The notes: a model not told the origin generated them from the letters alone. DNA of 62,844 bases, filler included, from Basidiobolus ranarum (GCA_040143965.1; 51 parts of 51 records of this genome joined end to end with filler, not necessarily neighbours in it), one strand, 5' to 3'; positions 1,241 to 62,844 are shown, numbered from the whole stretch's first letter. Translations and numbers: made by a program.

Positions 1241-2335
1241 ACATATGAACATTACCATCACTATCTAGCATAGCAAAATATGTGTTGGACCATTAAGCCT
1301 ACATAATAACCTGAAATTGCTTGGGTGCTTGAAAGTAGAAATTTCATTGGAAAGCCAGCAAACCAAAAGACTCTGAATGTCAGAGCTGCCATCACTTGCT
1401 CTGATGATGAGTGGTTTAACATTTTGGAAACTGTGTGGAATCTTGCCCAAAATCACCTGGATTTGAGCCAATTGTGGAAAAACCAAAGACCAGGTGTTAC
1501 TCTGAAGGTTCTTGAATTATTTCACGTGGCTTATCCTTGGTTTTTGCAAGTAAATGGCAATTGGGCTAGTATAGGCCTATTTATGAAACATCTCAAAAAT
1601 GTACACAATTATCAACTTGGAGAAGAAAGAAAAGCAGCTAAAGAAGTACTCAAGGAGCAGGAAGTTAGTAAACCCAAGGGAAAAGCAAAGGAGCCAGCAA
1701 GTTTAGGCTCTACTGTCCCACTTACCAAATTCTTCACACCATTACAAAGATCTGCATTCCAGAGTCAGATATACTGGCAAAAGAGCTTAATTTCACAATG
1801 GAACTGGGAACTCCAGTTGGAAGAGTGCTAAATTTGGAAGTTTATCCAACATCTGGCACCTCTCAACAAGCCTAAGCACCAGTAAATAAAACTCACAGCT
1901 CCCCAACCTCAACTGGTACTTTTCAAAGTGTTGACATTAGCCCCAAAGGTTAAGGCAAGCAAAAAGCCACACAAACACCGCAAAGCACCCTCAGTAGTGT
2001 CACACAACAAGGATGTACAAAAATAGTCAAAGTGCTTGAGGAGTAATTTCAAAAGTATGAAGGGAAAAATGCAGTACAAGTATGCAGAAAGTGGCTACAG
2101 AAAAAGAACATTCAACTTGACATTAAGTCTGATGTAGACTGTGCAGATTTCTGGGAAGAACTTAATTCAGAGTGGTGCAATATCACAGGATATCCACCAG
2201 ATAGTTGGAAGAATGTTAATTCAGCAATGTTAATACATGGTGGGCTTTGATGGAGATATTGACACAAACTCATGTTGGGTATAAGCTAAATCTTGGGTAT
2301 GAAGAACTCTATAAAAATTTTCAGAGAATATAACA
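1241..2335 (+). mobile_element. CACTA-type element ORF2 (accessory gene), central to 3' part, decayed
   Basis: DEWFNILETVWNLAQ...PWFLQ.NGNWAS.GLFMKHLKN shared with 6406-7335 and 60489-61616; overlaps 12389 and 44654 copies. Confidence 0.85.
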
Positions 2336-2379
2336 CCCTAACAGAAATTTGAGGATTGTTATTGTAGGAAAACCATCAC
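2336..2379 (+). mobile_element. Left terminus (TIR CCCTAACAGAAAT) of a second CACTA copy inserted into the first
   Basis: Matches reverse complement of ~45310-45353 and 40432 onward. Confidence 0.8.
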
Positions 2380-2479
2380 NNNNNNNNNNNNNNNNNNNNN
2401 NNNNNNNNNNNNNNNNNNNNNNNTTAATTAATTAANNNNNNNNNNNNNNNNNNNNNNNNNNNNNNNNNNNNNNNNNNNN

Positions 2480-3004
2480 CATGGAATTCAATTTTGTAAG
2501 CAGTACAACATGTCACTTATTTTGGAAGGATATGCTGATGCAGAATGGGCTCACAATAAAGAAGACTGTAAATCAAGAACTGGTTATCTGTTTAAGCTAG
2601 CAGGTGGGCCAATATGCTGGATTAGCAAGAAATAACAAACTGTTGCATTCTCAACTACAGAAGCAGAATATATGGCAAGCTCTATGGCTGTTCAACAAGC
2701 TAAATGGCTAAGGAGTTTTTGCAAGGAACTAGGATACGTTCAAGGTAATCCTACCCCAAAATATTAAGATAATATTAGTTGTATTCAGATCACCAAAAAA
2801 CCTGAGCATCACTCAAGGATGAAACATATTGACATAAGACATCATTTTATACAAGAGAAAGTTCAAGACAAACAAGTGAACTTTATTTATTGTAATACCA
2901 AACACATGCTTGCAGATATACTAGCAAAACCACTCAAAACTTCAAGCTTTGAGAAGTTAAGAGCAGGAATAGGTGTTGGTGAATATAAGCACAATGCTGA
3001 ATAA
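2480..3004 (+). pseudogene. Ty1/Copia RNase H region
   Basis: LEGYADAEWA..SRTGY..STTEAEYMA..KHIDIRHHFI..MLADILAKPL motifs, with stops. Confidence 0.93.
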
Positions 3005-3018
3005 GACTTAAGGGAAGG

Positions 3019-3334
3019 TGTTGAATAATTGATTGTTATTCAGCATCTTAGTTGATTTAGTTATGATAGATATATAACAAGCAGAATGCGACATATCTAT
3101 AGCCCCCATATTCTAAATAGGAATATCTCTATATCTATACAACAAGTATGTCTTATTACCCCCACTTATCTATTACTTCTAATTACACAAACTCCTGAAT
3201 ATCTCAAACAATGGATTCACTTTTCTACTATATAAGTTACCATATACTCTTAAGAATGAAGTAACTAAAACACATTATCATAATTTGCTTCTAATACGCA
3301 AAGTCTACCCCCATTATGTCAAGATCCTCCAATA
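3019..3334 (+). mobile_element. Copia 3' LTR (family F) preceded by PPT agggaagg (3011-3018)
   Basis: Starts TGTTG directly after the PPT; homologous to 9703-9812(-), 18218-18474(+), 44495-44593(-). Confidence 0.85.
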
Positions 3335-3529
3335 AGATGACCTTTTTATAGCAACTAATGAGTTGAAGACTTTAGAGAAAACCAAATCCAGCTGATCTGC
3401 CAAATTCAAAATGACCGATCTTGGTGAACTGGCATACTATTTTGGAATCCATATTAAGATAGATCAAACTACCAAAACAATAACTTTAAACCAGTCCAAG
3501 TATATCCATGATATACTAGAAAAGTATTG
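3335..3529 (+). pseudogene. Copia RT fragment
   Basis: DDLFIA...FKMTDLGELAYYFGIHI...LNQSKYIHDILEKY. Confidence 0.85.
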
Positions 3530-3618
3530 AGATATTTTAGTCTTTGTATTCCAGCCATAATGAGAATCAAAAAATACAAGAATCTTGTTGTGTTTAGTCT
3601 CTACGTATGCACATATTT
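3530..3618 (-). mobile_element. CACTA right-arm fragment
   Basis: Reverse complement of ~4963-5050. Confidence 0.8.
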
Positions 3619-3718
3619 NNNNNNNNNNNNNNNNNNNNNNNNNNNNNNNNNNNNNNNNNNNNTTAATTAATTAANNNNNNNNNNNNNNNNNNNNNNNNNN
3701 NNNNNNNNNNNNNNNNNN

Positions 3719-3823
3719 CAAAACTATAAATGTCAACTTTCTACTCAATAAATCAATAAGTGAAAACCACCAATTCCTCTAATTCTCCAAACCACTTCCA
3801 ACAGGCTCCCAAATACTTTAACA
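3719..3823 (-). mobile_element. LTR family E, 5' part
   Basis: Reverse complement of the TGTTAAAGTATTTGGGAGCC start seen at 25780, 45607 and 57038. Confidence 0.88.
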
Positions 3824-4430
3824 GTATCATCACTGATAGTTCATAAGTCAAAACATGATTCACTTTGGATGTGTTTGACAAATGTCAGAAATGCTCAAAA
3901 GAGACAGAAGTTTTCAAACTCATCCTAACCTCCCCAATCAGTAGTCCCAGCTGTTCTTTGTCTTCATTTCAGAAGTACATATACTTATGTTTACTTCAGT
4001 TAAACAAGTGTGAAGCACATATTTCTTGTAATTATCCTAATTACTTTCACCCAAATATTCACAGCAGATATATGCCCTGGTGGCAGACCAATAATTATCT
4101 TCTAATATGCAAAAACAACTTTTTTGGTGACAACATTAAAAATAAATATTCGAAATACATATCACTTGGATAATTCTCAAGATAACGATAAGCAAGAATT
4201 AATCATAACTACACACATCTTCCACTAACATGGTCCAAGTATGCGTATCCTGTTACCCATTGCGGAGTATAGATTCTCTTATACTATGAGCACTCTGCTC
4301 TGCCGATTCATCACTATCTATGCCAATACAAAAGCAATGTAACGTAGTACAATTTATTAAGCATTGGTTTTAAATAGAAGATATATCAATAAATATCAAA
4401 TTTAAATAAGTAGTGAGTATCCAAACAACT

Positions 4431-4856
4431 TTAACCGATCAGATGTCGCTTTATCAACGCAATAACATCCACAGCTGGTTTTCCCTGTTCATCGTTGAGG
4501 GCTTTAACTTTGGCATCCAACGTTTTCCCTTCATGTAAAGCTAGTACCTTGGCATCGAGTAATCTGCTATTCACTTGTCTCTTAACCAGTGCATCGATAT
4601 CTACAGCCGGCTTTCCTTGGTCATCTTTGAGGGCCTTGACCTTTGCATCCAGTGTTTTGCCTTCCTGCAAGGCTATCACCTTTGCATCAAGCAATTTACT
4701 GTTCACCTGTCTCTTTACCAGTGCGTCGATATCAACAGCTGGTTTCCCTTGGTCGTCTTTGAGAGCTTTGACTTTTGCGTCCAGTGTTTTACCTTGTTGC
4801 AAAGCTATCACCTTCGCATCGAGTAGTTTACTGTTCACTTGTCTCTTAACCAGGGC
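4431..4856 (-). CDS. 3' part of a tandem-repeat protein, 44-aa units each ending Lys-Arg (Kex2-processed repeat precursor candidate)
   Basis: Open frame ALVKR|QVNSKLLDAKVIALQQGKTLDAKVKALKDDQGKPAVDIDALVKR x3 |HLIG*; units differ mostly at synonymous sites. Confidence 0.85.
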   Translation of the reverse strand, partial: ALVKRQVNSKLLDAKVIALQQGKTLDAKVKALKDDQGKPAVDIDALVKRQVNSKLLDAKVIALQEGKTLDAKVKALKDDQGKPAVDIDALVKRQVNSRLLDAKVLALHEGKTLDAKVKALNDEQGKPAVDVIALIKRHLIG

Positions 4857-4957
4857 ANNNNNNNNNNNNNNNNNNNNNNNNNNNNNNNNNNNNNNNNNNN
4901 NTTAATTAATTAANNNNNNNNNNNNNNNNNNNNNNNNNNNNNNNNNNNNNNNNNNNN

Positions 4958-5342
4958 CAGTCAAATATGTGCATATGTAGAGACTAAACACAATGAGATT
5001 CTTGTATTTTTTGATTCTCATTATGGCTGGAATACAAAGCCTAAAATATCTAAATAAAGGCATGCATAGTAATTCAAATTCCTACAGCAGTAAACCCAGT
5101 AATTTGCCATTCGAAAATTATATTTTTGCAAAAATTGCTGGTTATTGAATAACGCATGCCAAATTTGAGGATCAATAGTTCAACATGTATGAATACCATA
5201 AAGATACCATCAAGAAACCACTGTCACACCATCAAAATTCCTGGCAGAATGCAAGCTAGCAGTATTGTGAAGGTTTTTGATGGTTTTGCTATTTTGGAGG
5301 GTGGATCCAATCCGGATCAAATTGATTTTATTTTTGTTAGGG
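4958..5342 (+). mobile_element. CACTA right end (transposase C-terminus, subterminal region, TIR ...ATTTTTGTTAGGG)
   Basis: Homology with 14864-15185 and 55275-55472 stops at the same GTTAGGG base. Confidence 0.88.
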
Positions 5343-5426
5343 TCTTGTGATCTACACCCAAGTACTCTTCTGCTTTCTAACATCTTGTTGTTGTTTCCAG
5401 TCCTTGTCCAGTTCCTTATTGCGACA
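5343..5426 (-). mobile_element. LTR family C, 5' part (consensus start TGTCACAATAAGG)
   Basis: Homologous to 13627-13701(-) and 50442-50551(+). Confidence 0.8.
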
Positions 5427-6405: not shown

Positions 6406-7335
6406 ACAATATTGTGCCACTCTGTATTTAGTTCTTCCTAGATATCTGCATGGTCCACACCAGACTGAATGTCGAGCTAAATGTTCTTCTTCTGAAGCTT
6501 CTTTCTGCATACTTGCACTGTGTCTTTCCCCTCATACTTTTGAAAATACTCCTCAAGCACTTTGACTACATTAGACCTTCCTTATAGTGTGACACTACTG
6601 AGGGTGCTTTGCAGTGTTTTTGCATCTTTTTGCTTGCCTTTATGTTTGGAGCTAATTTTAACACTTTGAACAATACCAGTTGAGATTGGAGAGCCATGGG
6701 TTTTACTTGCTGGTGTTTTGGCTTGTTGAGAGGTGCCAAGTGTTGGATAAACTTCCAAATTTAGCACTCTTCCAACTGGAGTACCTGGTTCCATGGTGAA
6801 ATTAAGCTTTTTTGCCAGTACATCAGACTCTGGAAATGCAAATCTTTGTAATGGTGTGATGAATTTGGCAAGCGGGACAGTAGAGCCTAAGCTCACTGGC
6901 TCATTTGCTTTTCCACATCAATAAACGCATTCATTTTTGAGATGTTTCATGAATAGGCCTCTACTAGCCCAATTGCCATTTGCTTGCAAAAACCAAGGAA
7001 AAGCCACATGAAATAAGTTAAGAACCTTCAGAGTAACACCTACTTTTTGGTTTTTCCACAATTGGCTCAAATCCTGATGATTTTGGGCAAGATTCCACAT
7101 AGTTTCCAAAATGTTAAACCACTAATCATCAGAGCAAGTGAGAGCAGCTCTGACATTCAGAGTCTTTTGGTTTGCCGGTTTCCCTATTAGATTTCTACCT
7201 CTATGAGCCCAAGCAATTTTGGGTCTTTCTGTAGGCTCAATGGTCCAACACATATTCTACTTTGCTAGATTGTCATGGTGACATTTGTATGTATGGTGTG
7301 GGATTGATTGAAATCCAGTATTAGAATGGATGGAG
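6406..7335 (-). mobile_element. CACTA ORF2 fragment, decayed
   Basis: Homologous to 1241-2190. Confidence 0.88.
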
Positions 7336-7435: not shown

Positions 7436-8574
7436 GGTACACTCCATTGGGAACTCCCAGAATGTATAGCAAGGGCCTATAATCTCTAAGCATTGTGAAA
7501 GATGCAGCAGGGAATGTATTGAATGCCGGCATAGAGTCAGTCTTTCTTCTTTAAACCTGTAATAAAGTTTTTCATATCCAATTACAAAATCTTTGCACAG
7601 TTGCTGTATCTGCCTGAAATCTGCCAATGTGAGTTGCTGCCATAGGAATATATTAACAATATTGACAAACAATTCCCAATGTTGCCAATACTTATCCGGC
7701 AGAAATCTTTTCAAAATTTAACTTGAATACATACAAATCCAATACTTTCAGTCTTTGCATTTGAATAAATGCCTAGATGAGTGAATATTGAAGGGAGTCC
7801 TGGTAAAATATGATGGAATCTTGATGTTTGCAAGCATTTTTCCAATCAATTCAAATTTTGATCCTATCTCAAATGCCTCATTCATATTGAATTTTCCACT
7901 ATACAGCTGAGTAAGTAGCATTGGAATGTTGTTGAATAGTAAGTGCATAGTGCCTAATAGGAAGCTCTGGCTCCAGCTGATCCCCTTTAGCAATATAATC
8001 TTAGGCTTATGACTAGTACCAAGTTTGATCTTAGAGTGAATATTTGGTGATTTATATAAGTGATCATGTTGAAATCTGACTGGGCTCTTGATGGTAAAAT
8101 CATGGAGTTTAGTGTTGTATTTGGATAGTAGTAATGCTTATGCCTGATACAGTAAATCCCATTGATTTGACAAAACCAACAGCAAGATAGTGCATTGTGC
8201 CCACAAAAACCTCCACCTTTACTGATGGCAGAGGTGTCACCAATACATACAATGATATTAACTTTAATAAAATATGCTCCCATCTGAACCCCATTAAGTA
8301 ACCATTCAAATTCCACAATCAAAGGCTCCAAGAAGCTATCTATAAGCACCAGTGATTTAGGTCCAGATATGATGGATAGTATCAAAATATTATGACTCTT
8401 ATACCATTCAAAAGGAGGAAGATTTAAGTTGATTGAAATTATTGGCCAGCAAGCCTTTCCAATGGTATATTTGTTTAGTGAGAAACCATCCAGAGCCAAT
8501 GTAAATGCATGATCATATGTGTTCTCAAAGAAACCTTGACTTTTCAGATTCTGGTAGTGATATCCATCAAGTAT
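7436..8574 (-). mobile_element. CACTA/EnSpm transposase core (Transposase_21 plus DUF4218-like region), decayed
   Basis: LALDGF..WPI..NLNLPP..K..N..II.GPK....D.FL.PL..E..GD..AISK..GH..CxxC; HSLLHL..I..GP..FWEFPME. Confidence 0.93.
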
Positions 8575-11150: not shown

Positions 11151-11333
11151 GTAGACCACAAGACAAGACATGACTGGACAGGGAAGATACTTTGGCAAGA
11201 ATCTTTGTTGATAACTGGCATTGATCAGACCTCAGTCTGATCAAGGAATACAAGCTTTGAATTGCACTGGCACTTGGCAAATAGTTGACTCCTGTTACTG
11301 TTCACAATGCAAATGGGCTCTTGGATTTTGGCA
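11151..11333 (+). mobile_element. LTR family C, 3' part
   Basis: Starts gtagaccacaagacaagaca as at ~50513; probable end ...TTGGCA. Confidence 0.7.
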
Positions 11334-12288
11334 AATTTCCACTGAATTCAGCCAAAATATCTTCAACTTGCAGTCAACAAATGTCCTACCACAAGTAGAT
11401 GTGTCATTGCTTATATTGATTAACCGATGGCTAGAGCAAAAAAACTGTATATCTCAATCAATCTCACCACAAAGTCTGTCTTGCAGCTTTCCTAGAAAAA
11501 TAATCATATTACCACACAAACAAATTAGTCTAAAATATAAAGGTACTTACTCTGAGTCCATGAATTAGGTTTTGTTGCTGCTATTATACTAAAACAATGC
11601 TATAACCAGTGAACATGTTGAAAAGAGCCCTTTGTTTGAAGGTTAACAAATTCTGGAGTCTCCTTAACCTATTACATCACAATTATCACTGATTTTGCTG
11701 AAACATTGTTTATCAGATTTGCATATATCAATATGGATGATTTCACATGGAGCAATATTTCACCACAGGTGCACTCCATTGCAAACTTTCAGAAAGTATA
11801 GCAAGGGCCAATAATCTCTAAGCATTGTGAAAGATACAGCAGGGAACATGTTGAATACTGGCATAGATTCAGTCAATCTTTTAACCTGTGATAATGTTTT
11901 CACCACCAATTACTAAATCTTTGCACATTTGCTATATCTGCATGAGACCTGCCAATGTGTGTTGATGCTGCAAGAATATATCAGCAATATCCACAAACAC
12001 CTCTCAATATTGCCAATACTTATGAGGCAGAAATCTTTTCAAAATTCAAATGGTATATATACAAATCCAATACCTCCAGTCTTTTCTCTTGAATAAATGC
12101 CTAGATGAGTGAATGTTGAGGGGAGACCTGGTAAAATATGATAGTATCTTGACATTTTCAAGCATTTTCTTAATTGATGAAAACTTTGATCCTATCTCAA
12201 AAGGCTCATTCATATTGAATTTACAACTATGTAGCAGAGTAGGTAGTATTGGATTGTTATTAAGAAGTAAGTGAACCATGCCTAATGG
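11334..12288 (-). mobile_element. CACTA transposase 3' half, decayed
   Basis: Homologous to 32164-33160 and 16101-16900. Confidence 0.9.
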
Positions 12289-12388: not shown

Positions 12389-13526
12389 CATATGTCCAAC
12401 CAATTTCAGGTTGTTGTGTGGGCATAATGGTCTGACACATATTCTGCTCTGCTAGATTGGGATGGTGACATTCACATGTATGCTGTGGGATTGATTGAAA
12501 TCCTGTTTGGGAATAGATGGAGGGAGCAGCATGTTGCTGCAGCTCAAGTATAGCATTCTGAAGGTTTTGTATCATTATTGAGTGACACTCTGACTATTGA
12601 CTAGTTGGTTCCAAATGCTGCATTAATTGCAATATTGTTGCATTATTACTTGTCATGTCCTGTATAGCAACTTTGTAGTTTTTACTTCTGATTGCATACA
12701 TATTACTATGGTGTTCTGCCTGCAATTCCATTTTTGTAATAATTCTATCAAAATTTTCTGCAGAGGGCTATTCAATAGTGGGCAAAGTAGCCATTTTGGA
12801 AGTTAATGGTCTTGATGGTGTTTTGGTTGAACTTTGCTCAACTATTGATTGACTACATAGTTGGGGGATTACAATCTCTTTACTTGCACTATTGCTGGAA
12901 AGGAACACATCTGAAAAATTGATTAATGCTCTATCATTACTTAAGTTAGTTTCTGTCATGTTAATGCCTTCCAAAGTGGTAGTGGAATGCTAGACTGCTC
13001 ATCAATTAAGTCCTCTGTTCTTGCTGGTTTTTTTCCTTTCATGCCAGCAGGCTTCAGTTTGCAAGCCAATTTTGATTTTGATTTTGTATGCTTTTTGAAT
13101 GGCATTGAAATTTTCAGATGGTAAACTTGGTGTAATGAAATTGCTTAGAAACAGCTGATAATAAACCAAAATTGCTACCCAATACCAGAAATATCTTGTA
13201 TATCCCCTGATGACTGACCTGTGTCACCATCTCAGAAACAGCTGATGATATTGATGGGCTATACCTAAAAACCACCCTAATGCAGGAGGTGTTCTTTTTT
13301 CCACAATATTGTTCTCATGCCACAACACAAATGTTTAAAGAAGCCCTGCTATTATTGTCACAAATTCTTGTGCTATGAAAGCTGGAGGATTTATGGAAAA
13401 ACTAATCACAATCATGGTCACTGTACAAAGCCACCAGCTGCACAAAGCCTGGTGAATATCAATACTAATAAGTGCACAAAATTGACTTTAGTGTGGCCCA
13501 CTGAGTCTACTGACTGTACTTTGCCT
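12389..13526. mobile_element. CACTA centre: ORF2 5' part (minus, ATG 13105), 155-bp spacer, transposase 5' part (plus, from 13261)
   Basis: Same divergent layout at 15186-16000 and 51883-53012. Confidence 0.88.
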
Positions 13527-13626: not shown

Positions 13627-13701
13627 CTACACCCAAGTACTCTCCTGCCTTCTAGCCTCTTGTTGTTGTTTCCAGTCCTTGTCCAGTTCCTTATTGTGAC
13701 A
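13627..13701 (-). mobile_element. LTR family C 5' end inserted in transposase
   Basis: ...ttattgtgaca junction; matches 50442 onward. Confidence 0.82.
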
Positions 13702-14763
13702 GCAACTGGGTGTTTATTGGTTATCTTACACCTTGACCACTGTTGATTGGCAACTGCGGCCTGCCACAGCCCTGGTAAAAGTGTAAAACACTTGTCAATT
13801 GTATGACTTATAATTCTTCAGTAATTAAACTGCCTTCATGTCCAAATGGTTGTTTGGCTTTCACAGATGATCTGTAAAACCTGAAGTCATGTACTGCTTG
13901 CACACAACTGGCAATCATTGCATCAGGTAAATATTGTTTGTATTTGGCTTTCATACCACTGATTCCCTATCTTGAAGTTTTGACAAAGTCACCCAAATAT
14001 AGATCATGGATCAAATACTAAAGTACTCACCATAAAGCTGATGGTATTACCAATATACTTGATGAATATCACTAGCAGAATCTGAATAGTCAAGGTTTTG
14101 TTGAGAACATATATGAACATGCATTTGCATTGGCTCTGGATGGTTTCTCACTAAACAAATATACCATTAGAAAGCCTTGCTGGCCAATAATTCTAATTAA
14201 CTTAAATATCCTTCCTTCTGAATGGTATTGTAGTCATAATATTTTGATCCTATCCATCATCTCTGTGCATCAATCACCAGTACTTATAGATAGCTTCTTC
14301 AAGCCTTTGATTGTGGAGCTTGAATGGTTATCAAATATGGTTCAGATTGCTCAGTATTTTATTAAATCTAATATCATTGTATGTATTGGTGACACTCTTG
14401 CCATCAGTAAACTTGGAGGTTTTTGTGTGCACAATGCACTATCTTGCTGTAGATTTTGTCAAAACAATAGATTTTACTCTATCAGGCATATTCCTTACTA
14501 CTATCCATATACAAAACTAAACTCTATGAGTTTACCGTCGAGAGCCTGGTCAGATATCAACATGATCGCTGAGATCAATACACCACAATAGTCAGTCTAA
14601 CAGCAAACTTGGTATGAGCCATAAGCCTAAGATTATACTGCTCAAGAGATCAGCAGCAGCCAGAGCTTCCCATTCTTAGAGTTTATATGCCCTTGCTATA
14701 CATTCTGGGAGTTCCCAATGGAGCACACCTGTAGTGAAATGTTGCTCTGTGTGAAATTGTCAG
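13702..14763 (+). mobile_element. CACTA transposase with an internal deletion near 14674
   Basis: CPNGCLAF..LKSCTAC zinc motif, DGF, GDT.A; jumps from SQSFP to the CYTFWEFPME region. Confidence 0.92.
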
Positions 14764-14863: not shown

Positions 14864-15185
14864 TATGGATGGAATACAAAGCCTAAAATATCTAAATAAA
14901 GGCATGCATATTAATTCAAATTCCTACAGCAGTAAACCCAGTAATTTGGCATTCGAGAATTATATTTTTGCAAAAATTGCTGGATATTGATTAACGCATG
15001 CCAAATTTGAGGATCAATATTTTAACATGTATGAATACCGCCTAGATTCCGTCAAGAAACTGCCGTCACATCATCAAAATACCTGGCAGAATGCAGGCCA
15101 ACAATATTGTGACGGTTCTCTGATGGTTTTACTATTTCAGAGGGTGGATCCAATCCGGATCAAATCGATTTTATTTTTGTTAGGG
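14864..15185 (+). mobile_element. CACTA right end (CpG-rich, young copy) inserted into ORF2 of another copy
   Basis: Ends ATTTTTGTTAGGG at 15185; ORF2 sequence follows immediately. Confidence 0.88.
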
Positions 15186-16000
15186 TTCATCTTTACTTGA
15201 GTTAGTTTCCAGCATGTTAATGCCTTCCATAGCGGATGGTAGATTGATACACTGCTCATCAATTAAGTCCTCTGTTCTTGCTGGTTTTCTTCCTTTTGTA
15301 CCAGCAGGCTTTGGCTTGGAGGCTGATTTTGATTTAGATTTTGAATGCTTTTTGAATGGCATTCAAATTTTCAGATGGTAAACTTGGTGTAACAAAATAA
15401 CTTAGAAAAAGCTTTTAATAAGCCAAAATTGCCATCCATTAGTGGAAATATCTTGTAAATCCCCTGATGACTCATCTCTGACACTGTTTCAGATGCAGCT
15501 GATGATATTGATGGGCTATACCTAAAATACCATTGTTATGTAGGAGGTGTTCTTTTTTCCACAAAATCCACCTCCTGCCAAAACACAATGTTTAAAGAAG
15601 CCTTGCTATTTTTGTCACAAATTCTTGAGCTATGAAAGCAGGAGGCTTTATAGAAAAAACAATCACAAGTATGGTCACTGAACAAAGCCACCAGCTGCAC
15701 AAAGCCTGGTGTATATCAACAATAATAAGTGCACCAAATTGACTTTAGTTTTGCCCACTAAGCCTACTGATTGTACTTGAGCTCAAAGTTTTGGTAACAC
15801 TGCCAAAAGTCAAGATACCATGGAGTTACCACAATCATATGACCTGAATGATGTAGGTCAAAATGCAACTTTGGTTGAACCAGTAAGTACAGACAACTTT
15901 GAGGAATTGCTGCTAGATATTGAACTTGGTTATTCTAGTACCTGTGGTAGTATATCAGAAGTTGAAGAAGAAGAAAATGATGTTGTTACGGACTCTTTGT
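15186..16000. mobile_element. CACTA centre: ORF2 start (minus, 15362), spacer, transposase N-terminus (plus, ~15518)
   Basis: MPFKKHSKSKSK.. on minus; KPCYFCHKF..HGH and acidic tract on plus. Confidence 0.88.
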
Positions 16001-19810: not shown

Positions 19811-19990
19811 TTTGGCATGCATTATTCAATATCCAGTAATTTTTGCAAAAATATAATTTTTGAATGGCAAATTACTAGGTTTACTGCTGTAGGAATTTGA
19901 ATTAATATGCATGCCTTTATTTAGATATTTTAGGCTTTGTATTCCAGCCATAATGATAATCAAAAAATATCTTGTTGTGTTTAGTCTCTA
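19811..19990 (-). mobile_element. CACTA right-arm fragment
   Basis: Reverse complement of ~4978-5163. Confidence 0.85.
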
Positions 19991-20147
19991 AACCTTAACC
20001 TAGTTTGTCAATGTATGGTACTTTGACAAATCAGCTATACAAGCACCTGATTGGCCTTAGACTTTGTATTCAGGTGCAGTCACCATACTACATATTTTCC
20101 TCTTTTGGGAATTACTGCTTGTACCACAAATCATCAGACTTTTAACA
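19991..20147 (-). mobile_element. LTR family I, 5' part
   Basis: Reverse complement of 57779-57930. Confidence 0.8.
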
Positions 20148-20946
20148 CTTACTTAGCTATATAGTGGAAAATTCATTATGAATGAGCCTTGTGAGATAGA
20201 ATCAAAGTTTGAATTGATTGGGAAAATGCTTGAAAACATCAAGATACCATCATATTTTACCAGGATTTCATCAGTAACCACTCATCTAGGCATTTATTCA
20301 AACACAAAGACTGGAAGTATTGGATCTGTGTATATTCCAGTGGAATTTTGAGGAGATTTCTGCCTGATAAGTATTGGTAACACTGGGAGTTGTTTGTCAA
20401 TATTGTTAATATATTCTTATGGCATGAACTCACATTGGCAGATCTCAGGCAGATACAGTGGCTGTGAAAAGATTTTATAATTGGATATGAAAAACTTTAA
20501 GTTTCAGTGCTATTCAAAATTTCAGATGCTTAGCAATTTTTCAACCATCAGTTTGCTGCTAAAGCATATTAATGTTGTTGAGTTATATCTAATCAGTCAA
20601 ATATATACATATGTAGAGACTAAACATAACAAGATTCTTGTATTTTTGGATTCTCATTATGGCAGGAATTCAAAGCCTAAAATGTCTAAATAAAGGCATG
20701 CGTATTAATTTGAATTCCTACAGCAGTAAACACAGTAATTTGCCATTTACAAATTATATATTGCAAAAATTGCCAGATATTGAATAACACATGCCAAATT
20801 TAAGGATCAATATTTTAACATGTATAAATACTGTCAAAATACTGCCAAGAAACTGCTGTGACACCATCAAAATGCCTGTCAGAATGCAAGCCACTAATAT
20901 TGTGATGGTTCTCTGATGGTTTTGCTATTTTGGAGGGTGGATTTGA
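20148..20946 (+). mobile_element. Internally deleted CACTA copy: transposase core joined (~20500) to the C-terminus and right arm
   Basis: Core sequence then ..YVETKHNKILVFLDSHYG..KPKMSK* and right-arm sequence on the same strand. Confidence 0.85.
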
Positions 20947-32163: not shown

Positions 32164-33297
32164 TTTTTAGCTGGCCTGATCTGGCTCAATAAAATGGAAC
32201 AAGTCTAAAGAATTCAGCCAATATATCCCCAACTTGCAGTCAAAAAATGTCCAGCCACAAGTAGATGTGTCATATGCTGGAGCAGATTACCCCATGGCTG
32301 AAACAATAAAACGGCATTTCTTGATCTCTCTCACCAAGAAGTCTGTCTTGCAGCTTTCCTAAAAATACTGTCAGATTATCACACAAGCAAGTTAGTCCAA
32401 TAATAGAGGTACTTATTCTGTGTCCTTGGATTGGGCTTTGTTGCTGTTATTGTGCACAAACAATGCAAAAACCCATAAGCACATTGAAAAGTGACCTTTG
32501 TTAGCAGGTTAGTTTCCACTGGAGTCTCCTTAACCCATTGCATTATAACCATCAGTGATTTTGCTGATACATTGTTATTCAGATTAGCATATGGTAATAC
32601 TGATAATTTGATGCAGAGCACCATTTCACTCCAGGTGCGCTCCATTGGGAACTGTCAGAATGTATAGCAAGGGCCTATAATCTCTAAGCATTGTGAAAGA
32701 TGCAGCAGGGAATATATTAAATACTGGCATAGATTAAGTCTATATGCTTTAAGCCTGTAATAAAGTTTTTCATATCCAATTACAAAATTTTTGCACAATT
32801 ACTGTATCTGCCGGAGATCTGCCAATGTGAGTTGATGCTTTAAGAATATATTAACAATATCAACAAAAACTCCCAATGTTGCCAATACTTATCAGGCAAA
32901 AATGTTTCAAAATTCCACTTGAATATATACAAATTCAATACTTCCAGTCTATGCATTTGAATAAATGCCTAGATGAGTGGATATTGAGGGGATTCCTGGT
33001 AAAATATGATGGTATCTTGACATTTTCAAGCATTTTCCCAATCAATTAAAACTTTGATCCTATCTTGAATGGCTCATTCCTTTTGAATTTTCCACTATAT
33101 AACTGAGTAAGTGGTATTAGAATACTGTTGAATAGCAAATGCAAAGTGCCTAATGGGAAGCTCTGGCTCCAGCTTATCCTCTTTAGCAATATAATCATAG
33201 GCTTACAGCTAATACCATATTTGATGTTAGACTGACTATTTGGTGAATTGATATCAGTGATCATATAGAAATCTGACTGTGATCCTGATGGTAAATC
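32164..33297 (-). mobile_element. CACTA transposase 3' half; retains the PMER motif
   Basis: SLLHLSQCLEIIGPCYTF.QFPMERT. Confidence 0.92.
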
Positions 33298-40431: not shown

Positions 40432-40620
40432 CCCTAGCTGAAATTTGTAGATTGCTATTGCAAGAAACCTGTCACAATTTTAATCCATTTTGGATTGACC
40501 ATGTACTTACTGCCATAAAATCATCAAGTTGGATTTGATTTTCACCAATTTTTTTAGTTTCAGGAGTGATGCAACACATGATTGGCTATAATCTTAGAAA
40601 ACTATGGATCAACACATATG
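40432..40620 (+). mobile_element. Diverged CACTA left end
   Basis: ccctagctgaaatttg..cacaattttaatccattttgg matches reverse complement of ~45145-45353. Confidence 0.78.
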
Positions 40621-40796
40621 CAAGAAATGTAACTCAAATTTTACACATTTACTACTTGAATGCTAATTGGTCATCTTTGAAATCTCTAATTTCTTTNNNN
40701 NNNNNNNNNNNNNNNNNNNNNNNNNNNNNNNNNNNNNNNNTTAATTAATTAANNNNNNNNNNNNNNNNNNNNNNNNNNNNNNNNNNNNNNNNNNNN

Positions 40797-44653: not shown

Positions 44654-45353
44654 TTAAAAGTGTTGAAATTAGCCCCATTCTTAAAGGCAAGCAAAAAGAT
44701 GCATATACACCACAAAGCATCCTCAGAAGTGTCACACTACAAGGACATATGAAAATAGTAAAAGTGCTTAAGGAGTATTTTCAAAAGAATCAGTGGAAAA
44801 ATGCAGTGCAAGTATGCAGAAAGTGACTTCAGAAGAAGAACATTCAACTTGACATTCCATCTGGTGTTGATCATGAAGGTATATGGGAAGAACTAAATAC
44901 AGAATGGCACAATATTGCAGGGTATCTACCAGATAGCTGGAAGAATGTAGGTTCAGCAATGTTAATACAATAGGGGCTTTGATGGATATATTGATACAAA
45001 CTCATGTTGGATATTATGTAAACTTTGAGTATGAAGAAATCTATAAAAATATTCAGGAGAATATATCAGAGAAACCAAGGATTCCAAAGGTGAAAAATTA
45101 GCATGCAAGTGGTAAAGGTGCAAAATTTGAGTTATGTTTTTTAAAGATGTGTTGATCCATAGTTCTCTGAGATTTTAGCCAATCATGTGCAACTATTTTG
45201 AAAGATCTCAAAATTTCAATCCTGAAGTTGAAAAATTTGATTAGAATCAAATCTAAATTGATAATTTTATGATGGCAAGTAAACAGTCAACCCAAAATGG
45301 ATTAAAATTGTGATAGTTTTCCTACTATGACAATCTTCAAATTTCTGTTAGGG
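44654..45353 (+). mobile_element. CACTA ORF2 3' end running uninterrupted into the left TIR (...ATTTCTGTTAGGG)
   Basis: Colinear with ~1925-2335, then ~290 bp to GTTAGGG at 45353. Confidence 0.88.
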
Positions 45354-51882: not shown

Positions 51883-53012
51883 GTTCTGCCTGCAATTGCC
51901 TTGTTGTAATAATTCTATCCAAATGTTCAATGGAGGGTTGTTCAACAGTGGGGAAAGTAGTCATTTTGGGAGTTGATGGTTTTGATGGTGTTTTGGTTGA
52001 ACTTTGCTCAACTATTGATTTACTAGGTAACTGGGGGATTACAATCTCTTCACTTGCACTATTGCTGGAAAGGAACACATCTGGTAAATTGATTAATGCT
52101 TCATCATTTCTTGAGTTAGTATCCTGCATGCTAATGCCTTCCAAAGGGGATAGTGGATCACTAGATGGCTCATAAATCAAGTTCTCTGCTCTTGCTGGTT
52201 TTTTTCCTTTAGTGCCAGCAGGCTTTGGCTTGGAAGCCAATTTTGACTAAGATTTTGAATGCTTTTTGAATGGCATTGAAATTTTCAGATGGTAAACTTG
52301 GTGTAATGAAATTGCTTAGAAACAGCTTATAATAAACCAAATTTACCATCCATCACCAGAAATATCTTGTAAATCCCCTGATGACTCATCTGTGACACCA
52401 TCTTAGAATCAGCTGATGGTATTGATGGGCAATGCCTGAAAAGCCACCCTTATGTAGGGGGTGTTCTTTTTTCTACAACATCCTTCTCTTGCTGCAAGAC
52501 AAATGTTTAGAGAAGCCCTGCTATTATTGTCACAAATTCTTATGCTATGGAAGCTGGAGGCTTCATAGAAAAAGTAATCACAAGCATAGTCACTGTACAA
52601 AGCCACCAGCTGCACAAAGCCTGTTATATAACAACAGTATTAAGTGCACTAAATCAACTTTAGTTTTGCCCATTAAGTCCACTGACTGTACTTTGCCTCA
52701 AAGTTTTGGTAATACTGCCAAAAGTCAAGATACTCTGGAGTTACCACAGTTATATTACCAGAATGATGTAAGTAGAAATACAACCTTGGTCAAACCAGTA
52801 AGTCCAGACAACTTTGAGGACTTGCTGCTAGATGTTGACCTTGGTTATTCCAGTAGTGATGGTAGTATATCAGAAGTTGAAGAGGAAGAAAATGGTTTTG
52901 TTATGGACTCTTTGTTATTGGCAAACATTAGGCCACTCATAACACTTACTCTAAAGGAAGCAGCTTTGATTATTGAGGAGTGGAGAGTTCAATCCAATCT
53001 TAGCAAGCAGGT
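51883..53012. mobile_element. CACTA centre: ORF2 5' (minus, ATG 52276), 155-bp spacer, intact transposase N-terminus (plus, ATG 52432)
   Basis: MPEKPPLCRGC..KPCYYCHKF..H..H..; 3' end overlaps ~54985-55094 and 62821-62844. Confidence 0.9.
52277..52431. promoter_or_regulatory. Putative bidirectional promoter of the transposon
   Basis: Exactly 155 bp between the two starts in three copies (13106-13260, 15363-15517, 52277-52431). Confidence 0.6.
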
Positions 53013-53112
53013 NNNNNNNNNNNNNNNNNNNNNNNNNNNNNNNNNNNNNNNNNNNNTTAATTAATTAANNNNNNNNNNNNNNNNNNNNNNNNNNNNNNNN
53101 NNNNNNNNNNNN

Positions 53113-54342: not shown

Positions 54343-55094
54343 TCACCCATCTGAACCCCATTAGATAACCATTCAAATTCCACAATCAAAGGCTCCAAGA
54401 AGCTATCTATAAGCACTGGTGATTTAGGTCCAGATATGATGGATAGTATCAAAGTATTATGACTCTTATACTGTTCAGAAGGAGGAAGATTTAAGTTGAT
54501 TAAAATTATTGGCCAGCAAGCCTTTCCAACAGTATATTTGTTTAGTGAGAAACCATCCAGAGCCAATGCAAATGCATGATCATATGTGTTCTCAAAGGAA
54601 CCTTGACTTTTCAGATTCTGGTAGTGATATACATCAAGTGTATTGGTAATACCATCAGCTTTATGGTGAGTTCTTTGGTATTGCATCAATGATCTATATA
54701 TGGGTGATTTCATCAAAACTTTCAGACAAGAAAGCAATGAAATGTAAGCCAAATATGAACAATATTTACCTGATCCAGTGTTTGCCAATTGTGTGCAAAC
54801 AGTACATGACTTCAGGTTTTTCAGATCAATGGTGAAAGTCAAATAACCATTTGGACATGAAGGTAGTTAAATTACTGAAGGATTATAAGTCATACAATTG
54901 ACAAGTGTTTTCCACTTGTACCAGGTGTGTGGCAAGCAACAGTTGTCAATCAACTGTGGTAAAAATGTAAGAAAACCAATTAACACCTGGTTGCTAAGAT
55001 TGGATTGAACTCTCTACTCCTCAATAATCAAAGCTACTTCCTTTACAATAGATGTTATGAGTGTACTTGTGTTTGCCAATAACAAAGAGTCTAT
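54343..55094 (-). mobile_element. CACTA transposase, N-terminal to core
   Basis: Long open stretch SCPNG..LKSCTVC..LALDGF..GPKSP..DSFLEPL. Confidence 0.93.
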
Positions 55095-55274
55095 TATGGT
55101 GGGGCAGCACTGCTACCCACTGGCAGGTTGACTTATTTCCACTCCGAGCTCATATCACTACTATGGCACTATTTCTATTTTAGTATCCATACTTGACTTA
55201 CCCATATTTTCTAGCCAATCATAGCACACCATTAGTATTATCCCCTATTATTACAGATTTATCAGTATTAACCC
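55095..55274 (+). mobile_element. LTR-like family A, 5' part
   Basis: Matches 18983-19162. Confidence 0.8.
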
Positions 55275-55472
55275 CCCTAACAAAAATAAAATCGATTTGA
55301 TCCGGATTGGATCCACCCTCCAAAATAGCAAAACCGTCAGAGAACCGTCACAATATCGTTAGCTTGCATTCTGCCAGGGATTTTGATGGTGTGACGGCGG
55401 TTTCTTGACGGTATCTTGGCGGTATTCATACATGTTAAAATATTGATCCTCAAATTTGGCATGCGTTATTCA
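55275..55472 (-). mobile_element. CACTA right end, CpG-intact young copy with ACCGTCA subterminal repeats
   Basis: Reads CCCTAACAAAAAT inward; accgtca at ~55333 and ~55344, inverted tgacgg at ~55392 and ~55406. Confidence 0.9.
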
Positions 55473-58032: not shown

Positions 58033-58542
58033 TTCTTCATCTCTATCTTTTGGGGATATTTCCATTCTAGTTTAGCTCCAACAGTAGAATTAGGAGCAGT
58101 TTGGCCACCAAAAGGAATAGAACCATTAAATCCTTGGGAAGTTCCTTTATTAAATACAGTAATTCTTTTATCATCAGGAGCTACTGTTACTTGGGCTCAT
58201 CATAGCTTATTAGGTGAATCTAGAAAAGGTACAATCTTAGGTTTATTCTTTACATTAGTTTTAGCTGTTATATTCACTGCTCTTCAAGGATTCGAGTATT
58301 ATAATGCACCATTTACTTTTAGTGATGGAGTATTTGGTTCTTGTTTCTATATGGCTACTGGTTTCCATGGATTCCATGTCTTTGTAGGTACAGTATTCAT
58401 AGCTGTATCTTTATGGAGAGTAATCTCTTACCAATTAACTGATCAACATCATGTTGGATTAGAATCTGCTATACTTTACTGGCATTTTGTCGACGTAGTT
58501 TGGCTATTCTTATTCATCAGTATATATTGGTGGGGTAGCTAG
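58033..58542 (+). CDS. cox3: Mitochondrial cytochrome c oxidase subunit 3, 3' part
   Basis: [51 protein letters not shown]; all Trp codons are TGG. Confidence 0.98.
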
Positions 58543-58555
58543 TTAAAAACCAAGT

Positions 58556-59150
58556 ATCCCCCCCCCCATCTAGTAAGTAAACGATCCTGATCCATCGATG
58601 GCGAAGCACGGGGGCCCCCTTTTGGAGATGCCCCCCAATGGGCAAGGGGGGGGAATTGGTTAAATATGACACCCCCCCCCGGTATTCATTCCTGGTTTCC
58701 TGCCAAAGGGCGAGGATATAATAAAAAAACTCCCCCCCGCCCTGATCCCTTCGGGCGGACTGATTCCCCCCCATCTGGTTATTGATCCAGTGCTGATCCC
58801 TTCGGCCGGGGGGCCCCCGCTTCGCAATGGGGGGGAATCCTGGCCCTGATCCCTTCGGCCGGGATTGGATGTTTATTGCGAAGCCGGGGGGGGGATGCTA
58901 GAGGGGGGGCCTTTCGGGGGGGACGTCAAAAGCCGCCCCCCCAATGGAATGCACGTTGGTCCCATGCTTTGAACAAGGGGGGGGGAGAGTATTAATAAAC
59001 TTGCCCTTCCCCCCCCCCCCCCCCCGGGGGGCCCGCGTGGGGGGGCATTTGTTTGAAGTTTTTAGCCCCCCCCCCTTTCTGTGGAATGGATTTACCTACT
59101 TACCGAGTCAAGTTTCATAAACGAACGGGGGGAACAAGGGGCGGAGGGAC
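58556..59150. repeat. Mitochondrial GC clusters / hairpin elements
   Basis: Complementary G and C runs; ctgatcccttcgg three times (~58742, 58793, 58846). Confidence 0.8.
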
Positions 59151-59259
59151 CGAATTATANNNNNNNNNNNNNNNNNNNNNNNNNNNNNNNNNNNNNNNNN
59201 NNNTTAATTAATTAANNNNNNNNNNNNNNNNNNNNNNNNNNNNNNNNNNNNNNNNNNNN

Positions 59260-60388
59260 CCCAACACCTACTGACAAAAGTAGATCAAGAAACTACTGGC
59301 CAATCAATCTCCAATATTCCCTCTCTTGCCAGTGTGAAGAAAGTCCTCCTAGCAAGTCAGAAGAACTCAGCACTCATGAAGATGCTCCAGAAGAGGAGGG
59401 AACAACAACAGCCAAGACCATAAGAACCATTGGCAAAAAGCAGAACAGTTGATGTTGAGGAAGAACTATCCAACATTAGCAAGAAACCTGAATGTCTCAC
59501 TTTGAAAATTGAAAGCAAGTCTTGCCAAAGAGGAATCTATCAATCTTCCTACCCATCTAATTGTGTATGGTGTGACTTAACCAAGAATACCAAGGAGGAC
59601 TGTCCTGAATTGAATGAACTACTTGACAAAGGAGAGCTCCAATTGTACTCAAGAGGGTTTATACTAGATCATGATGGCAGAAATGTCAGGACAAACTTCA
59701 GGAGAGGAGGTACGAAAGCAATTTACTGCCCACCAGTTGACAACACCACAAGGACAACTATTGAAAACCCTGATCAGAACATGCATCACTTTGCTGTTGA
59801 CAAACACCAGAACCATACATTGGAATCTGACATTGAAGATGATTTTTCTTGCTTAGCTGAAGCTTATACAACCAAGGGAGCTTCTCCAGCAGAGGAACTA
59901 AGACCTACTGGTACACAGAAGGCAAGATTTTCTGAGCCAGAGGTTGTTATAGAGAACATTCCAAAACCAAAACCAATACCTACTGAAGCAGGACCTTGAC
60001 CACCCAACTATCAGATGCAATCCAAGATTAGCAAGAAGGCAGATCCTGAGATATGACTGAGAGGATCTTAGACTCTTGCCTCTCTGTGACAATTGGGGAA
60101 CTTGTGAGTGCTTCCCCTACAGTCTGAAAGAATCTAGATGACAACATCTGTACAAGGAGACAGCCTATAGATCAACCTTCAGCAAGAATTATACAGACAA
60201 CTCATGATGAACCACTTCCCAAGATGAACAAGGAAACACCTACATTCACATACTACTCATGGAGACCGTCTACAATGCCATATTGCTAGTGGGTCAGAGA
60301 ATTGTGTGATGCCAATGGACTGCTATAAGTCCTGACCATGCAATCACTTGCTCCCCAGGGATACTGACATACACTGGATTTTGCAGCA
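59260..60388 (+). pseudogene. Ty3/Gypsy gag zinc-knuckle to protease
   Basis: CVWCD...TKEDCPEL knuckle; VTIGELVSASP; AIL.SGSENCVM degenerate protease motif. Confidence 0.75.
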
Positions 60389-60488
60389 NNNNNNNNNNNN
60401 NNNNNNNNNNNNNNNNNNNNNNNNNNNNNNNNTTAATTAATTAANNNNNNNNNNNNNNNNNNNNNNNNNNNNNNNNNNNNNNNNNNNN

Positions 60489-61616
60489 TAATCCCCCATT
60501 TATGTATAAAATCACTAGTTGAGTAAAGTTCAACAGAAATGCCATCAACTTCCAAAGGGCTGCTTTGCCAACTATTGAAAAACCCTCCAAACAATATTTG
60601 GATAGAAGTATTACCACAAGAAAATTGCAGGCCAAAAACCATCAAGATTTGTATGCAATTGTATGTAAAAACAACAAAGTTGCTATACAGGCCATAACAA
60701 GCAATAACACTGCAATATGGCAATGAATGCAGCATTCTAAAGCGGCTATTCAATAGTTAGAGAGTCACTAAGCAATGATACAAGATCTTGGAATACTATA
60801 CTTTAGCTACAATAATATGGTGCTCCCTCCATCTATTCTCATATGGGATTTCAATCAATCCCACACCATACATTAGAATGTCACTATAACAATCTAGCAG
60901 AGCAGAATATGTGTTGGCACATTAAGTCTACACAATGACCCAAAATTGCTTGGGCCAATGAAGTTTATATCTCATTAGAAAACCAAAAAACCAAAAGATT
61001 CTCAATGTCAGAGCTGCCATCTCTTGCTCTGTTGATGAGTAGTTTGACATCTTGGAAACTGTGTGGAATCTTGCCCAAAATTGCCTTTATCTGAGCCAAT
61101 CTTGGAAAAACTAAAAACTAGGCATTACTCTGAAGGTTCTTGACTTATTTCATGAGGGTTATACTGGGTTTTTGAAAGCAAATGGCAATTGGGCTAGTAT
61201 AGGCCTATTTATGAAACAGCACAAAAATGTATGCAAGTATCAACTTGGAAAAGAAAGAAAAGCAGCTAAAGAAGTACTCAAGGATCAGTAAATCAGGAAA
61301 CCCTAGGGAAAAGCAAATGGGCCAGTGTGTTTAGGTTTTACTGCCACACTTACCAGATTCTTCACACCATTATCAAGATCTGTATTTCCTGAGTCAGATA
61401 TAGTGGCAAAAAAGCTTAATTTCACTATGGAACTGGGTACATCAATTGGAAATGTGCTAAATTTGGAAGTTCATCCAACACTTGGTACATCTCAACAAAC
61501 CAAACTCCTGCAAATAAAGCTCACTGCTCTCCAACCTCAACTTGAACTTTTCAAAGTGTTGAAATTAGCAAAAAACTCAAAGGCAAGCAAAAAGCTGAAA
61601 AAACACAACAAAGCAC
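60489..61616 (+). mobile_element. CACTA ORF2 central part; bridges the N-terminal and C-terminal fragments
   Basis: 5' half matches reverse complement of 12389-12860; 3' half matches 1241-1987. Confidence 0.88.
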
Positions 61617-61716
61617 NNNNNNNNNNNNNNNNNNNNNNNNNNNNNNNNNNNNNNNNNNNNTTAATTAATTAANNNNNNNNNNNNNNNNNNNNNNNNNNNN
61701 NNNNNNNNNNNNNNNN

Positions 61717-62844
61717 CTCAATGTTGCCAATACTTATCAGGCAGAAATCTTTTCAAAATTCCACTTGAATATATACAGATCCAATACTTCCAGTCTTTGC
61801 ATTTGAATAAACACCTAGATGAGTGTATATTGATGGGAGTCCTAGTAAAATATGATGGTATCTTGATGTTTTCAAGCATTTTCCCAATCAATTCAAACTT
61901 TGATCCTATCTTGAATGGCTTATCTGTATTGAACTTTGCACTATATAGCTGAGTAAGCAGTATTGGAATGTTGTTGAATAGTAAGTGCCTAGTGCCTAAT
62001 GGGAAGCTCTGGCTCCAGCTAATCCCCTTTAGCAATATGATCTTAGGCTTAGGGCTAATACTAAGTTTGTTGTTAGACTGACTATTAGGTGAATTGACAT
62101 CAGTGATTATGTTGAAATCTGACCAGGCTGTGGACAGTAAAATCATGAAGTTTAGTGTTGTATTTGGATAGTAGTAATGTGTATGCCTGTTAGAGTGAAC
62201 TGCATTGATTTGACAAAATCTACAGCAAGATAGTGCATTGTGCCCATGAAAACCTCCAGATTTACTGATGGCAAGAGTGTCACTATTACATACAATGATA
62301 TTAGCTTTAATAAAATATTCACCCATCTGAACCCCATTAGATAACCATTCAAATTCCACAATCAAAGGCTGCAAGAAGCTATCTATAAGCACTGGAGTTT
62401 TAGGTCCAGATATGATGAGTAGTATCAAAATATTATGACTCTTATATAGTTCAGAAGTAGGAAGATTTAACTTGACTAAAATTATTGGCCTGCAAGCCGT
62501 TCTGATGGTATATTTTTTTAGTGAGAAACCATCCAGAGCCAATACAAATGCCCAATCATATGTGTTCTCAAAGAAACCTTGACTTCTCAGATTCTGCTAG
62601 TGATATCCATCAAGAATATTGATAATACCATCAGCATTATGGTGAGTACTTTGGTTTTTGATCAATGATCTATATTTAGGTGATTTCATCAAACTTCAAG
62701 ATGGGGAATAAATGGTATGTAAGCCAAAAAAATACAAGTGTTTTCCACTTGTACCAGGTTTGTGGCAAGCAACAGTTGCCAATCAACTGTGGTAAAAGTG
62801 TAAGAAAACCAATAAACACCTGGTTGCTAAGATTGGATTGAACT
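61717..62844 (-). mobile_element. CACTA transposase core (274-aa open stretch)
   Basis: DGF, WPI-like, GPKTP, D..AISK, CCRFC, LG.RH, KCKDWK motifs. Confidence 0.94.

Follow-up and report, generated by a model that had tools for sequence, protein, structure and literature searches.

Decayed copies of a probable CMC/EnSpm (Tnp2) DNA transposon family with CCCTAAC ends in short contigs of Basidiobolus ranarum

Maize En/Spm, the type CACTA element, is a cut-and-paste transposon that works with two proteins, one of them a transposase of the Tnp2/TnpD type. Both proteins are produced from one transcription unit in the same direction, and short direct and inverted motifs near both ends of the element bind the second protein, TnpA. 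For fungi, excerpts of a recent survey give CAC..GTG ends and 3-bp duplications for EnSpm elements, TGT..ACA or CATCA..TGATG ends for Plavaka, and 5'-CA..TG-3' ends "in most cases" for the CMCT clade (EnSpm-Mirage-Chapaev and relatives) as a whole (Kojima 2025, PMC12730594). Two CMC elements of Cryptococcus, CNIRT6 and CNEST, begin with CACTG and CACGG, respectively (PMC12810828, in excerpt), and Basidiobolus genomes were described as very rich in transposable elements, with huge CMC-EnSpm expansions (Muszewska et al. 2017, PMC5751038, in excerpt). Here, we analyze a stretch of 62,844 nucleotides, hereafter the window, in which 51 contigs of Basidiobolus ranarum (GCA_040143965.1) are joined. 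These contigs most probably contain decayed, mutually nested copies of one CMC/EnSpm (Tnp2) cut-and-paste DNA transposon family from a Basidiobolus-like fungus. A preliminary description of the same DNA had proposed a fungal CMC/EnSpm transposon with ends other than CACTA, and the Transposase_21 matches, catalytic signature, and CCCTA ends reported below agree with it.

The contigs (c1 to c51) are 1,128-1,140 bp long, sorted by length, and linked by N44-TTAATTAATTAA-N44. An all-against-all blastn comparison yielded a single connected graph comprising 29 of the 51. Nine contigs were stitched by script along their overlaps into a pseudo-reference of 4,878 bp, from which the right arm of the element, represented by the first 385 bases of c5 (385 bp), was kept separate. 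In line with the roughly 21 tiling contigs counted before, 21 of the 51 match the pseudo-reference or the right arm (c2, c3, c5, c6, c7, c10, c11, c12, c13, c14, c16, c17, c27, c33, c37, c41, c43, c45, c47, c50, and c51), with approximately 75-96% identity between copies (blastn); the remaining eight members of the graph are connected via unrelated repeats only. Depth on the pseudo-reference is two to three copies over the first 2.9 kb, which is the side of a second gene termed open reading frame 2 (ORF2), up to nine copies over the transposase core, and one copy over the last 190 bp. The epithet high-copy, used for the family earlier, has as its basis these 21 of 51 short contigs, a repeat-biased sample, and the statement on Basidiobolus in the excerpted survey (PMC5751038).

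The transposase provides the link to the superfamily. Four of the 91 frames of at least 75 amino acids (aa) match Pfam Transposase_21 (PF02992) at 40-50 bits, compared with a cut-off of 28.6. P0001, a protein of 698 aa from outside the window, is 81% identical to the frame at 61721-62596, scores 60.3 bits with Transposase_21, and lacks both the N-terminal finger and the C-terminus. Because it maps without a break to pseudo-reference positions 2387-4446, P0001 independently confirms the join between the N-terminal and the core contigs. Within the window, c43, c45, c12, and c51 continue from the N-terminal region into the core, as previously outlined. Three protein searches for a full-length transposase returned only P0001 and distant Tnp2 proteins, the nearest named relatives being "Transposase family Tnp2" proteins of Rhizoctonia and Ceratobasidium with 24-31% identity. 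In an alignment of 11 Tnp2 proteins, little or no variation is seen at D260, D344, E609, C363/C366, and H585/H589, and this D, D, E, CxxC, HxxxH signature was also located in frames of the window, spread over the copies, no single one of which has all parts intact. Every motif listed in the preliminary description (C2H2-like finger, CPNGC..CxxC, DG, DxPA, CxxC, HxxxH, and PMER) was found in frame. Its transposase length of at least 900 aa is a read-through length only; about 757 codons are backed by homology, and no open frame is longer than 292 aa.

With regard to the putative distinct lineage, P0001 sits on a long separate branch in a FastTree tree; the 14 sequences of this tree were collected by word-limited searching, and labelled reference lineages of the CMC clade are not among them. 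When the PDB was searched with a profile built from 11 Tnp2 proteins, no relative emerged (best E 0.52), and a protein-guided scan of JGI metagenomes with P0001 produced 588 pattern matches, none of which was confirmed.

Six element ends were identified, at the places named in the preliminary description (2336, 40432, 45353, 5342, 15185, and 55275), and all six begin CCCTAACA(G/A)AAAT. The 13-mer CCCTAACARAAAT occurs exactly five times in the window (2336+, 5342-, 15185-, 45353-, and 55275+) and in none of 100 shuffles, and the sixth end, at 40432, carries it with two mismatches. Three ends are of the left type (CCCTAACAGAAATTTGAGG...; 2336, 45353, and 40432) and three, read inward, of the right type (CCCTAACAAAAATAAAATC...; 5342, 15185, and 55275). 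The flanks outside the six ends are mutually unrelated. Four ends are fixed to the base, exactly at CCC/GGG, because a homologous flank is present uninterrupted in another contig (c2 versus c37; c13 versus c43 and c11; c45 versus c16 and c1; c5 versus c41). Each of these four empty-site comparisons reads one side of the insertion only, and two of the four insertions lie within other copies of the same transposon family. When tested for a CACTA (or CAC...GTG) terminus, all six ends failed, starting with CCCTA instead, and the term CACTA-type in the title of the preliminary description was thus loose. TTAA, the piggyBac target, flanks none of the six. The flanks of c37 and c33 were compared with family sequence and contain none, which means that no duplication can be read by pairing them with c2 or c13. 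An exact 29-nt pattern of the right end had no match in JGI metagenomes. Two candidate ends were discarded: an 8-mer match to the terminus at 33528 is unrelated, and a right-end look-alike immediately upstream of the c33 left end is a chance likeness in AT-rich sequence.

Between the left end and the ORF2 stop lies a noncoding left arm of approximately 370 bp, pieces of which occur in three contigs. The right arm, which has at least 479 bp and terminates in ATTTTTGTTAGGG, is represented at six places in five contigs (c3, c5, c13, c45, and twice in c17). Both arms share the terminus in 12 of 13 positions (CCCTAACA-AAAT), and they also share a related stretch of about 25 bp, shifted by an indel. 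In addition, a subterminal motif, AACC(G/A)TCA (form AACCGTCA), is present once in the left arm and, as two direct and two inverted copies, in the right arm; its orientation with respect to the end is shared by both arms. One more copy (AACCATCA) is found in a 94-bp segment of c17.

The head-to-head layout of two genes, claimed in the preliminary description, is seen directly on c11, c43, and c13; in each of them, the start codon of ORF2 lies on one strand and the zinc finger of the transposase on the other. ORF2 starts with MPFKKH... on the minus strand (ATG at 13105 in c11, 52276 in c43, and 15362 in c13), and the zinc finger CYYCHKF follows on the plus strand at 13347, 52519, and 15604, respectively. 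The spacer between the divergent frames measures approximately 160-210 bp. In c11, the ATG of ORF2 (13105) and the first open transposase codon (13269) are 163 bp apart, compared with the 155 bp given for the spacer before. The three divergent copies are 80-87% identical to each other, and each extends from the beginning of ORF2 across the spacer to that of the transposase. The other proposed links also held, with 44654-45353 leading from the left end into ORF2 and 60489-61616 covering the ORF2 middle. The stop of the minus-strand ORF2 frame (2248-2250 in c2) is approximately 370 bp away from the left end, which gives the frame about 540-555 codons, slightly below the estimate of 560 aa. Two ideas, that of an intron within the 5' portion of ORF2 and that of the antisense frame as an exon of the transposase, were rejected, since in c43 a single continuous frame of 121 aa crosses this portion and no intron is needed.

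ORF2 is an orphan. Among 1.84 billion representatives, searched exhaustively with HMMER, it has six matches, namely four short fragments from Basidiobolus ranarum, an unnamed protein of 299 aa with 49% identity, and one low-complexity sequence. The 299-aa relative is located on a separate 1.8-kb contig. Of eight protein clusters that were looked up, four, which contain ORF2 fragments, are labelled "hypothetical protein [Basidiobolus ranarum]". P0027, an intact ORF2 piece of 257 aa from outside the window, shows 72-85% identity to the window copies; along with the 299-aa relative and the 121-aa frame of c43, it speaks for ORF2 as a genuine coding frame. This piece is labelled "hypothetical protein, partial [Ascosphaera pollenicola]", after an unrelated ascomycete, and comes from a 1,000-bp contig; its identity is within the spread of the family, and the label points to contamination of the Ascosphaera pollenicola assembly or to horizontal transfer.

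Taken in order, the reconstructed element would consist of the left end CCCTAACAGAAAT, the arm of about 370 bp, ORF2 on the minus strand, the spacer, which probably serves both genes as a bidirectional promoter, the plus-strand transposase, a gap, and the right arm ending in ATTTTTGTTAGGG (Table 1). By inference from the family, a DDE transposase would bind the 13-bp inverted ends, excise the element, and paste it elsewhere. The predicted ORF2 protein is restricted to the lineage and has basic, disordered tails around a small core of helices; by analogy with TnpA in maize En/Spm, its most likely role is that of a helper, which would bind the AACC(G/A)TCA motifs near both ends.

Table 1. Parts of the transposon family located in the window (positions counted from the first nucleotide of the window)
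Feature	Position	Strand	Details
Left arm and ORF2 3' part, c37	44654..45353	-	c37 160-859 = pseudo-reference 699-1; terminus CCCTAACAGAAAT at 45341-45353, minus-strand reading
Left terminus, further copy	2336..2379	+	Nested in ORF2 3' region of copy 1241-2335; empty site versus c37
Older left arm, c33	40432..40684	+	About 75% identity to c37; terminus CCCTAGCTGAAAT, 2 mismatches
Right arm, c5	4958..5342	+	Terminus ATTTTTGTTAGGG at 5330-5342; inserted in sequence like a long terminal repeat (LTR) lying in transposase core
Right arm, c13	14864..15185	+	Nested within another family copy
Right arm, c45	55275..55472	-	Inserted in LTR-like repeat Z
ORF2 middle and 3' part, c2	1241..2335	-	ORF2 sense on window plus strand; 173-aa open piece 1310-1828; stop 2248-2250
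ORF2 5' and middle parts, c50	60489..61616	-	
ORF2 copy, c6	6409..7335	+	ORF2 sense on window minus strand
ORF2 5' half, spacer, transposase start, c11	12396..13526	+	ORF2 ATG 13105-13103 minus; frame opens 13269; CYYCHKF 13347-13367
ORF2 5' end, spacer, transposase N-terminus, c43	51888..53012	+	121-aa frame 51884-52246 minus, ATG 52276; 196-aa frame 52426-53013
ORF2 start and transposase start, c13	15189..16000	+	ATG 15362; ORF2 cut at 15185/15186 by right end of another copy
Transposase N-terminal region into core, c45	54343..55094	-	First catalytic D (LALDGF) 54549-54566
Transposase core, c51	61719..62844	-	Longest open frame of the family 61721-62596 (292 aa); LALDGF 62525-62542, CCRFC 62213-62227
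Core up to E motif, c7	7436..8572	-	LALDGF 8482-8499, TMHL 7940-7951, HSLLH 7502-7516, PMEC 7439-7450
Core with internal deletion, c12	13701..14763	+	CPNGC 13839-13853, LALDGF 14130-14147, GDTLA 14388-14402, CCRFC 14445-14459
Core and post-E-motif region, c27	32164..33295	-	PMER 32637-32648
3'-most covered element part, c10	11151..12286	-	Pseudo-reference 3693-4878; last ~190 bp from c10 alone
c17 right half	20147..20942	+	Core (pseudo-reference 3735-4088), then 94 bp with AACCATCA motif, then right arm 1-349
c17 left part	19811..19990	-	Second right-arm piece, inverted; then LTR-like piece W at 19995-20146

All copies in the window are dead: their frames are broken, CpG is nearly gone, and they have received insertions of LTR-like elements and of their own kind. 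No copy is intact. The ratio of observed to expected CpG is 0.08 in the 21 family contigs versus 0.74 in four gene contigs (c25, c29, c30, and c40), and TpG and CpA are in excess in the transposon contigs. The right arms in c13 and c45 look younger, because more CpG is kept there (0.26-0.28). Besides other copies of the family, LTR-like ends of three or more kinds interrupt the copies. Repeat Z, starting TG(G)TGTAGTGGGGCAGC..., occurs at 18981-19710 (c16), 55099-55274 (c45), and 361-950 (c1). It adjoins two different transposon positions and, in c1, its own interior; this marks it as a separate mobile element with two or more insertions into the family. ARAGORN found no tRNA in repeat Z. A second LTR-like end (...CCTTATTGTGACA) lies at 5343-5426 (c5), 13627-13702 (c12), and 50438-50551 (c41), adjacent to three different positions of the transposase core, with 100% identity over 76 bp between the c12 and c41 copies; where c5 carries the right-end insertion of the transposon, c41 has a (GTCTT)n run. 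A repeat of approximately 337 bp, inserted into the transposase core of c47 (57041-57377), is common to c4, c21, c28, and c15, the c4 and c21 copies being 100% identical over 103 bp.

Several observations speak against a single family with a dedicated helper gene. None of the 51 contigs carries both ends, as had been stated before, and neither a pairing of left and right ends nor a target-site duplication, which has 2-5 bp in the CMC/CMCT clade (3 bp in EnSpm), was seen. A single contig, c37, connects the left end with ORF2, and a single contig, c17, physically links the transposase to the right arm. On the other side of its core fragment, c17 bears an inverted right arm and the foreign LTR-like piece W. 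Since c17 is a mosaic, the core-to-right-end link comes from half of one contig, and the deletion copy at 20148-20946 that had been said to join core and right end is valid for the right half. The 3' gap in the transposase reported earlier is still uncovered between the stitched element and the right arm. Coding similarity is absent from the final ~430 bp of the stitched sequence, and a search with a C-terminal domain profile from ten relatives was negative in six-frame translations of every contig (best E 0.14). When the end of c10 was locally aligned with the 94-bp segment of c17, the score was 42 against a shuffle maximum of 32, but the alignment is gappy and unconvincing. The uneven depth, two to three copies for ORF2 versus up to nine for the core, may mean that many copies are without ORF2. 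As for the helper role, the ORF2 pieces, P0027, and P0003 match no Pfam family above the cut-off, ORF2 retrieved unnamed clusters only from the ESM Atlas (best score 0.89), and its AlphaFold model has a mean predicted local distance difference test (pLDDT) value of 45.3, with a helical core at residues 87-174.

It is conceivable, albeit rather unlikely, that the tiling merges two elements, an autonomous one composed of the left arm, ORF2, and the transposase, with its right end outside the window, and a non-autonomous element or sister subfamily with right-type arms on both sides. Such a merger would suit c17, where inverted right-type arm pieces flank a 354-bp core fragment on both sides, as well as the six right-arm places in five contigs compared with left-arm pieces in three, and a comparison of the 3' end of the stitched element with right-arm-internal sequence, in which no overlap was found. 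However, the two arms agree in 12 of 13 terminal positions, in the further related stretch, and in the orientation of the subterminal motif. In c17, the right half looks like the product of a simple internal deletion that leads from the core to the motif-bearing subterminal region, and the left half is parted from the core by piece W. Since W meets a different core position in c47, the left half points to a secondary rearrangement.

A single family that includes these ends is also preferred over a mixed origin of the ends. CCCTA-type ends resemble those of piggyBac, and they might have come from another superfamily, piggyBac-like or PIF/Harbinger-like, whose members landed in or beside Tnp2 elements, so that the adjacency would be mere nesting. 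That four of the six ends lie inside other repeats, two of them in copies of the same family, would be in keeping with this, as would the large PIF-Harbinger and CMC expansions reported for Basidiobolus (PMC5751038, in excerpt). Nevertheless, we deem it highly improbable: none of the 91 frames matches a piggyBac or PIF/Harbinger transposase family, PIF/Harbinger Pfam families being absent from the ORF2 pieces as well; the flanks are not TTAA; over 700 bp, the left arm of c37 passes unbroken into the 3' region of ORF2 shared by c2 and c6; and the subterminal motif recurs in c17 in the 94 bp adjoining the core. A host origin of ORF2, as a captured or neighboring gene fragment carried by one subfamily rather than a transposon helper, is likewise decidedly unlikely. 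The 49%-identical relative on its separate contig, an ORF2 coverage of one third of that of the core, and the lack of a recognizable DNA-binding domain would favor it, but three independent copies keep the divergent arrangement with the transposase at 80-87% identity, CpG decay in the ORF2 copies equals that in the rest of the element, and the six database matches are all fragments, one of low complexity, and none represents a conserved fungal gene family.

Apart from the transposon family, the window holds a contig with four tRNA genes on one strand within 690 bp (c20, 23760-24448), for Ile-AAT, Ser-AGA, Gln-TTG, and Leu-CAA, with a gap of 2 bp between the Ile and Ser genes. Contig c48 (58033-59159), which contains the 3' part of COX3 (Pfam E 1.6e-83) followed by approximately 600 bp very rich in G and C runs that bring it to 48% G+C, is probably of mitochondrial origin and has GC clusters. 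Retrotransposons have left fragments of the copia type (gag, RVT_2, SH3-like) and of the gypsy type (RVT_1, RNase H) at 17564-18247, 22458-23419, 28463-29065, and 55935-56699.

It is tempting to go further and regard the family as a deep CMCT lineage that ranks with Plavaka or ESTA, is confined to early-diverging (Zoopagomycota) fungi, and is defined by its CCCTAAC...GTTAGGG ends, its own helper, and a two-way promoter; we consider this unlikely. The outermost six bases of the ends equal one TTAGGG telomere unit, and a bolder extension of the same idea would have these telomere-like ends recognized by telomere-repeat-binding proteins of the host. The more modest reading, one decayed CMC/EnSpm family, would offer a first anatomy, with ends, subterminal motif, and two-gene layout, for the CMC-EnSpm elements reported to be hugely expanded in Basidiobolus, and better repeat annotation of fragmented Basidiobolus genomes would follow. 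It opens no new mechanism. What it would do is widen the known range of CMC elements, by ends that do not start with CA and by a helper gene in divergent orientation.

Like maize En/Spm, the family would be a two-protein cut-and-paste element, with a transposase of the Tnp2/TnpD type and short direct and inverted motifs toward the ends. In contrast to that element, its genes diverge from a spacer of approximately 160-210 bp, its ends are not CACTA, and ORF2 has no similarity to TnpA families (no Pfam match). The survey of Basidiobolus genomes dealt with the same genus and the same marker, Transposase_21, and in the excerpts of it counted Pfam domains without giving ends, gene layout, or a family description (PMC5751038); our search of the literature on Basidiobolus, as distinct from Repbase and Dfam, in which a consensus may already be deposited, found no family-level description, and this survey was the only paper in it to name Basidiobolus together with EnSpm or terminal inverted repeats. 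Going by excerpts of the respective papers, fungal EnSpm/Tnp2 elements, such as the EnSpm families of Puccinia (PMC12730594), CNIRT6 (PMC12810828), and the Tnp2 elements of Rhizoctonia and Ceratobasidium, are alike in the Transposase_21 transposase, the N-terminal Cys/His finger, the CxxxC...CxxC region, short inverted ends, and a length of at least 5 kb. They differ in having CAC...GTG or CACTG ends where the present family has CCCTAAC...GTTAGGG, and protein identity to the nearest named relatives is only 24-31%. Two further groups were compared by way of excerpts (PMC12730594): fungal transposons with a TET/JBP gene carry it as the second gene, in the place of which we find the orphan ORF2 (no Pfam match above cut-off), and Plavaka, a fungal CMCT lineage (section 3.2.2), shares the C(2)C and H(3-4)H motifs of its EnSpm-related transposase with our family, whereas the Pfam Plavaka model gave no match at E up to 1 and the ends differ. 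Judged by sequence, the CCCTAAC...GTTAGGG ends together with a divergent, putative helper gene of orphan character depart from the CMC elements described in these papers.

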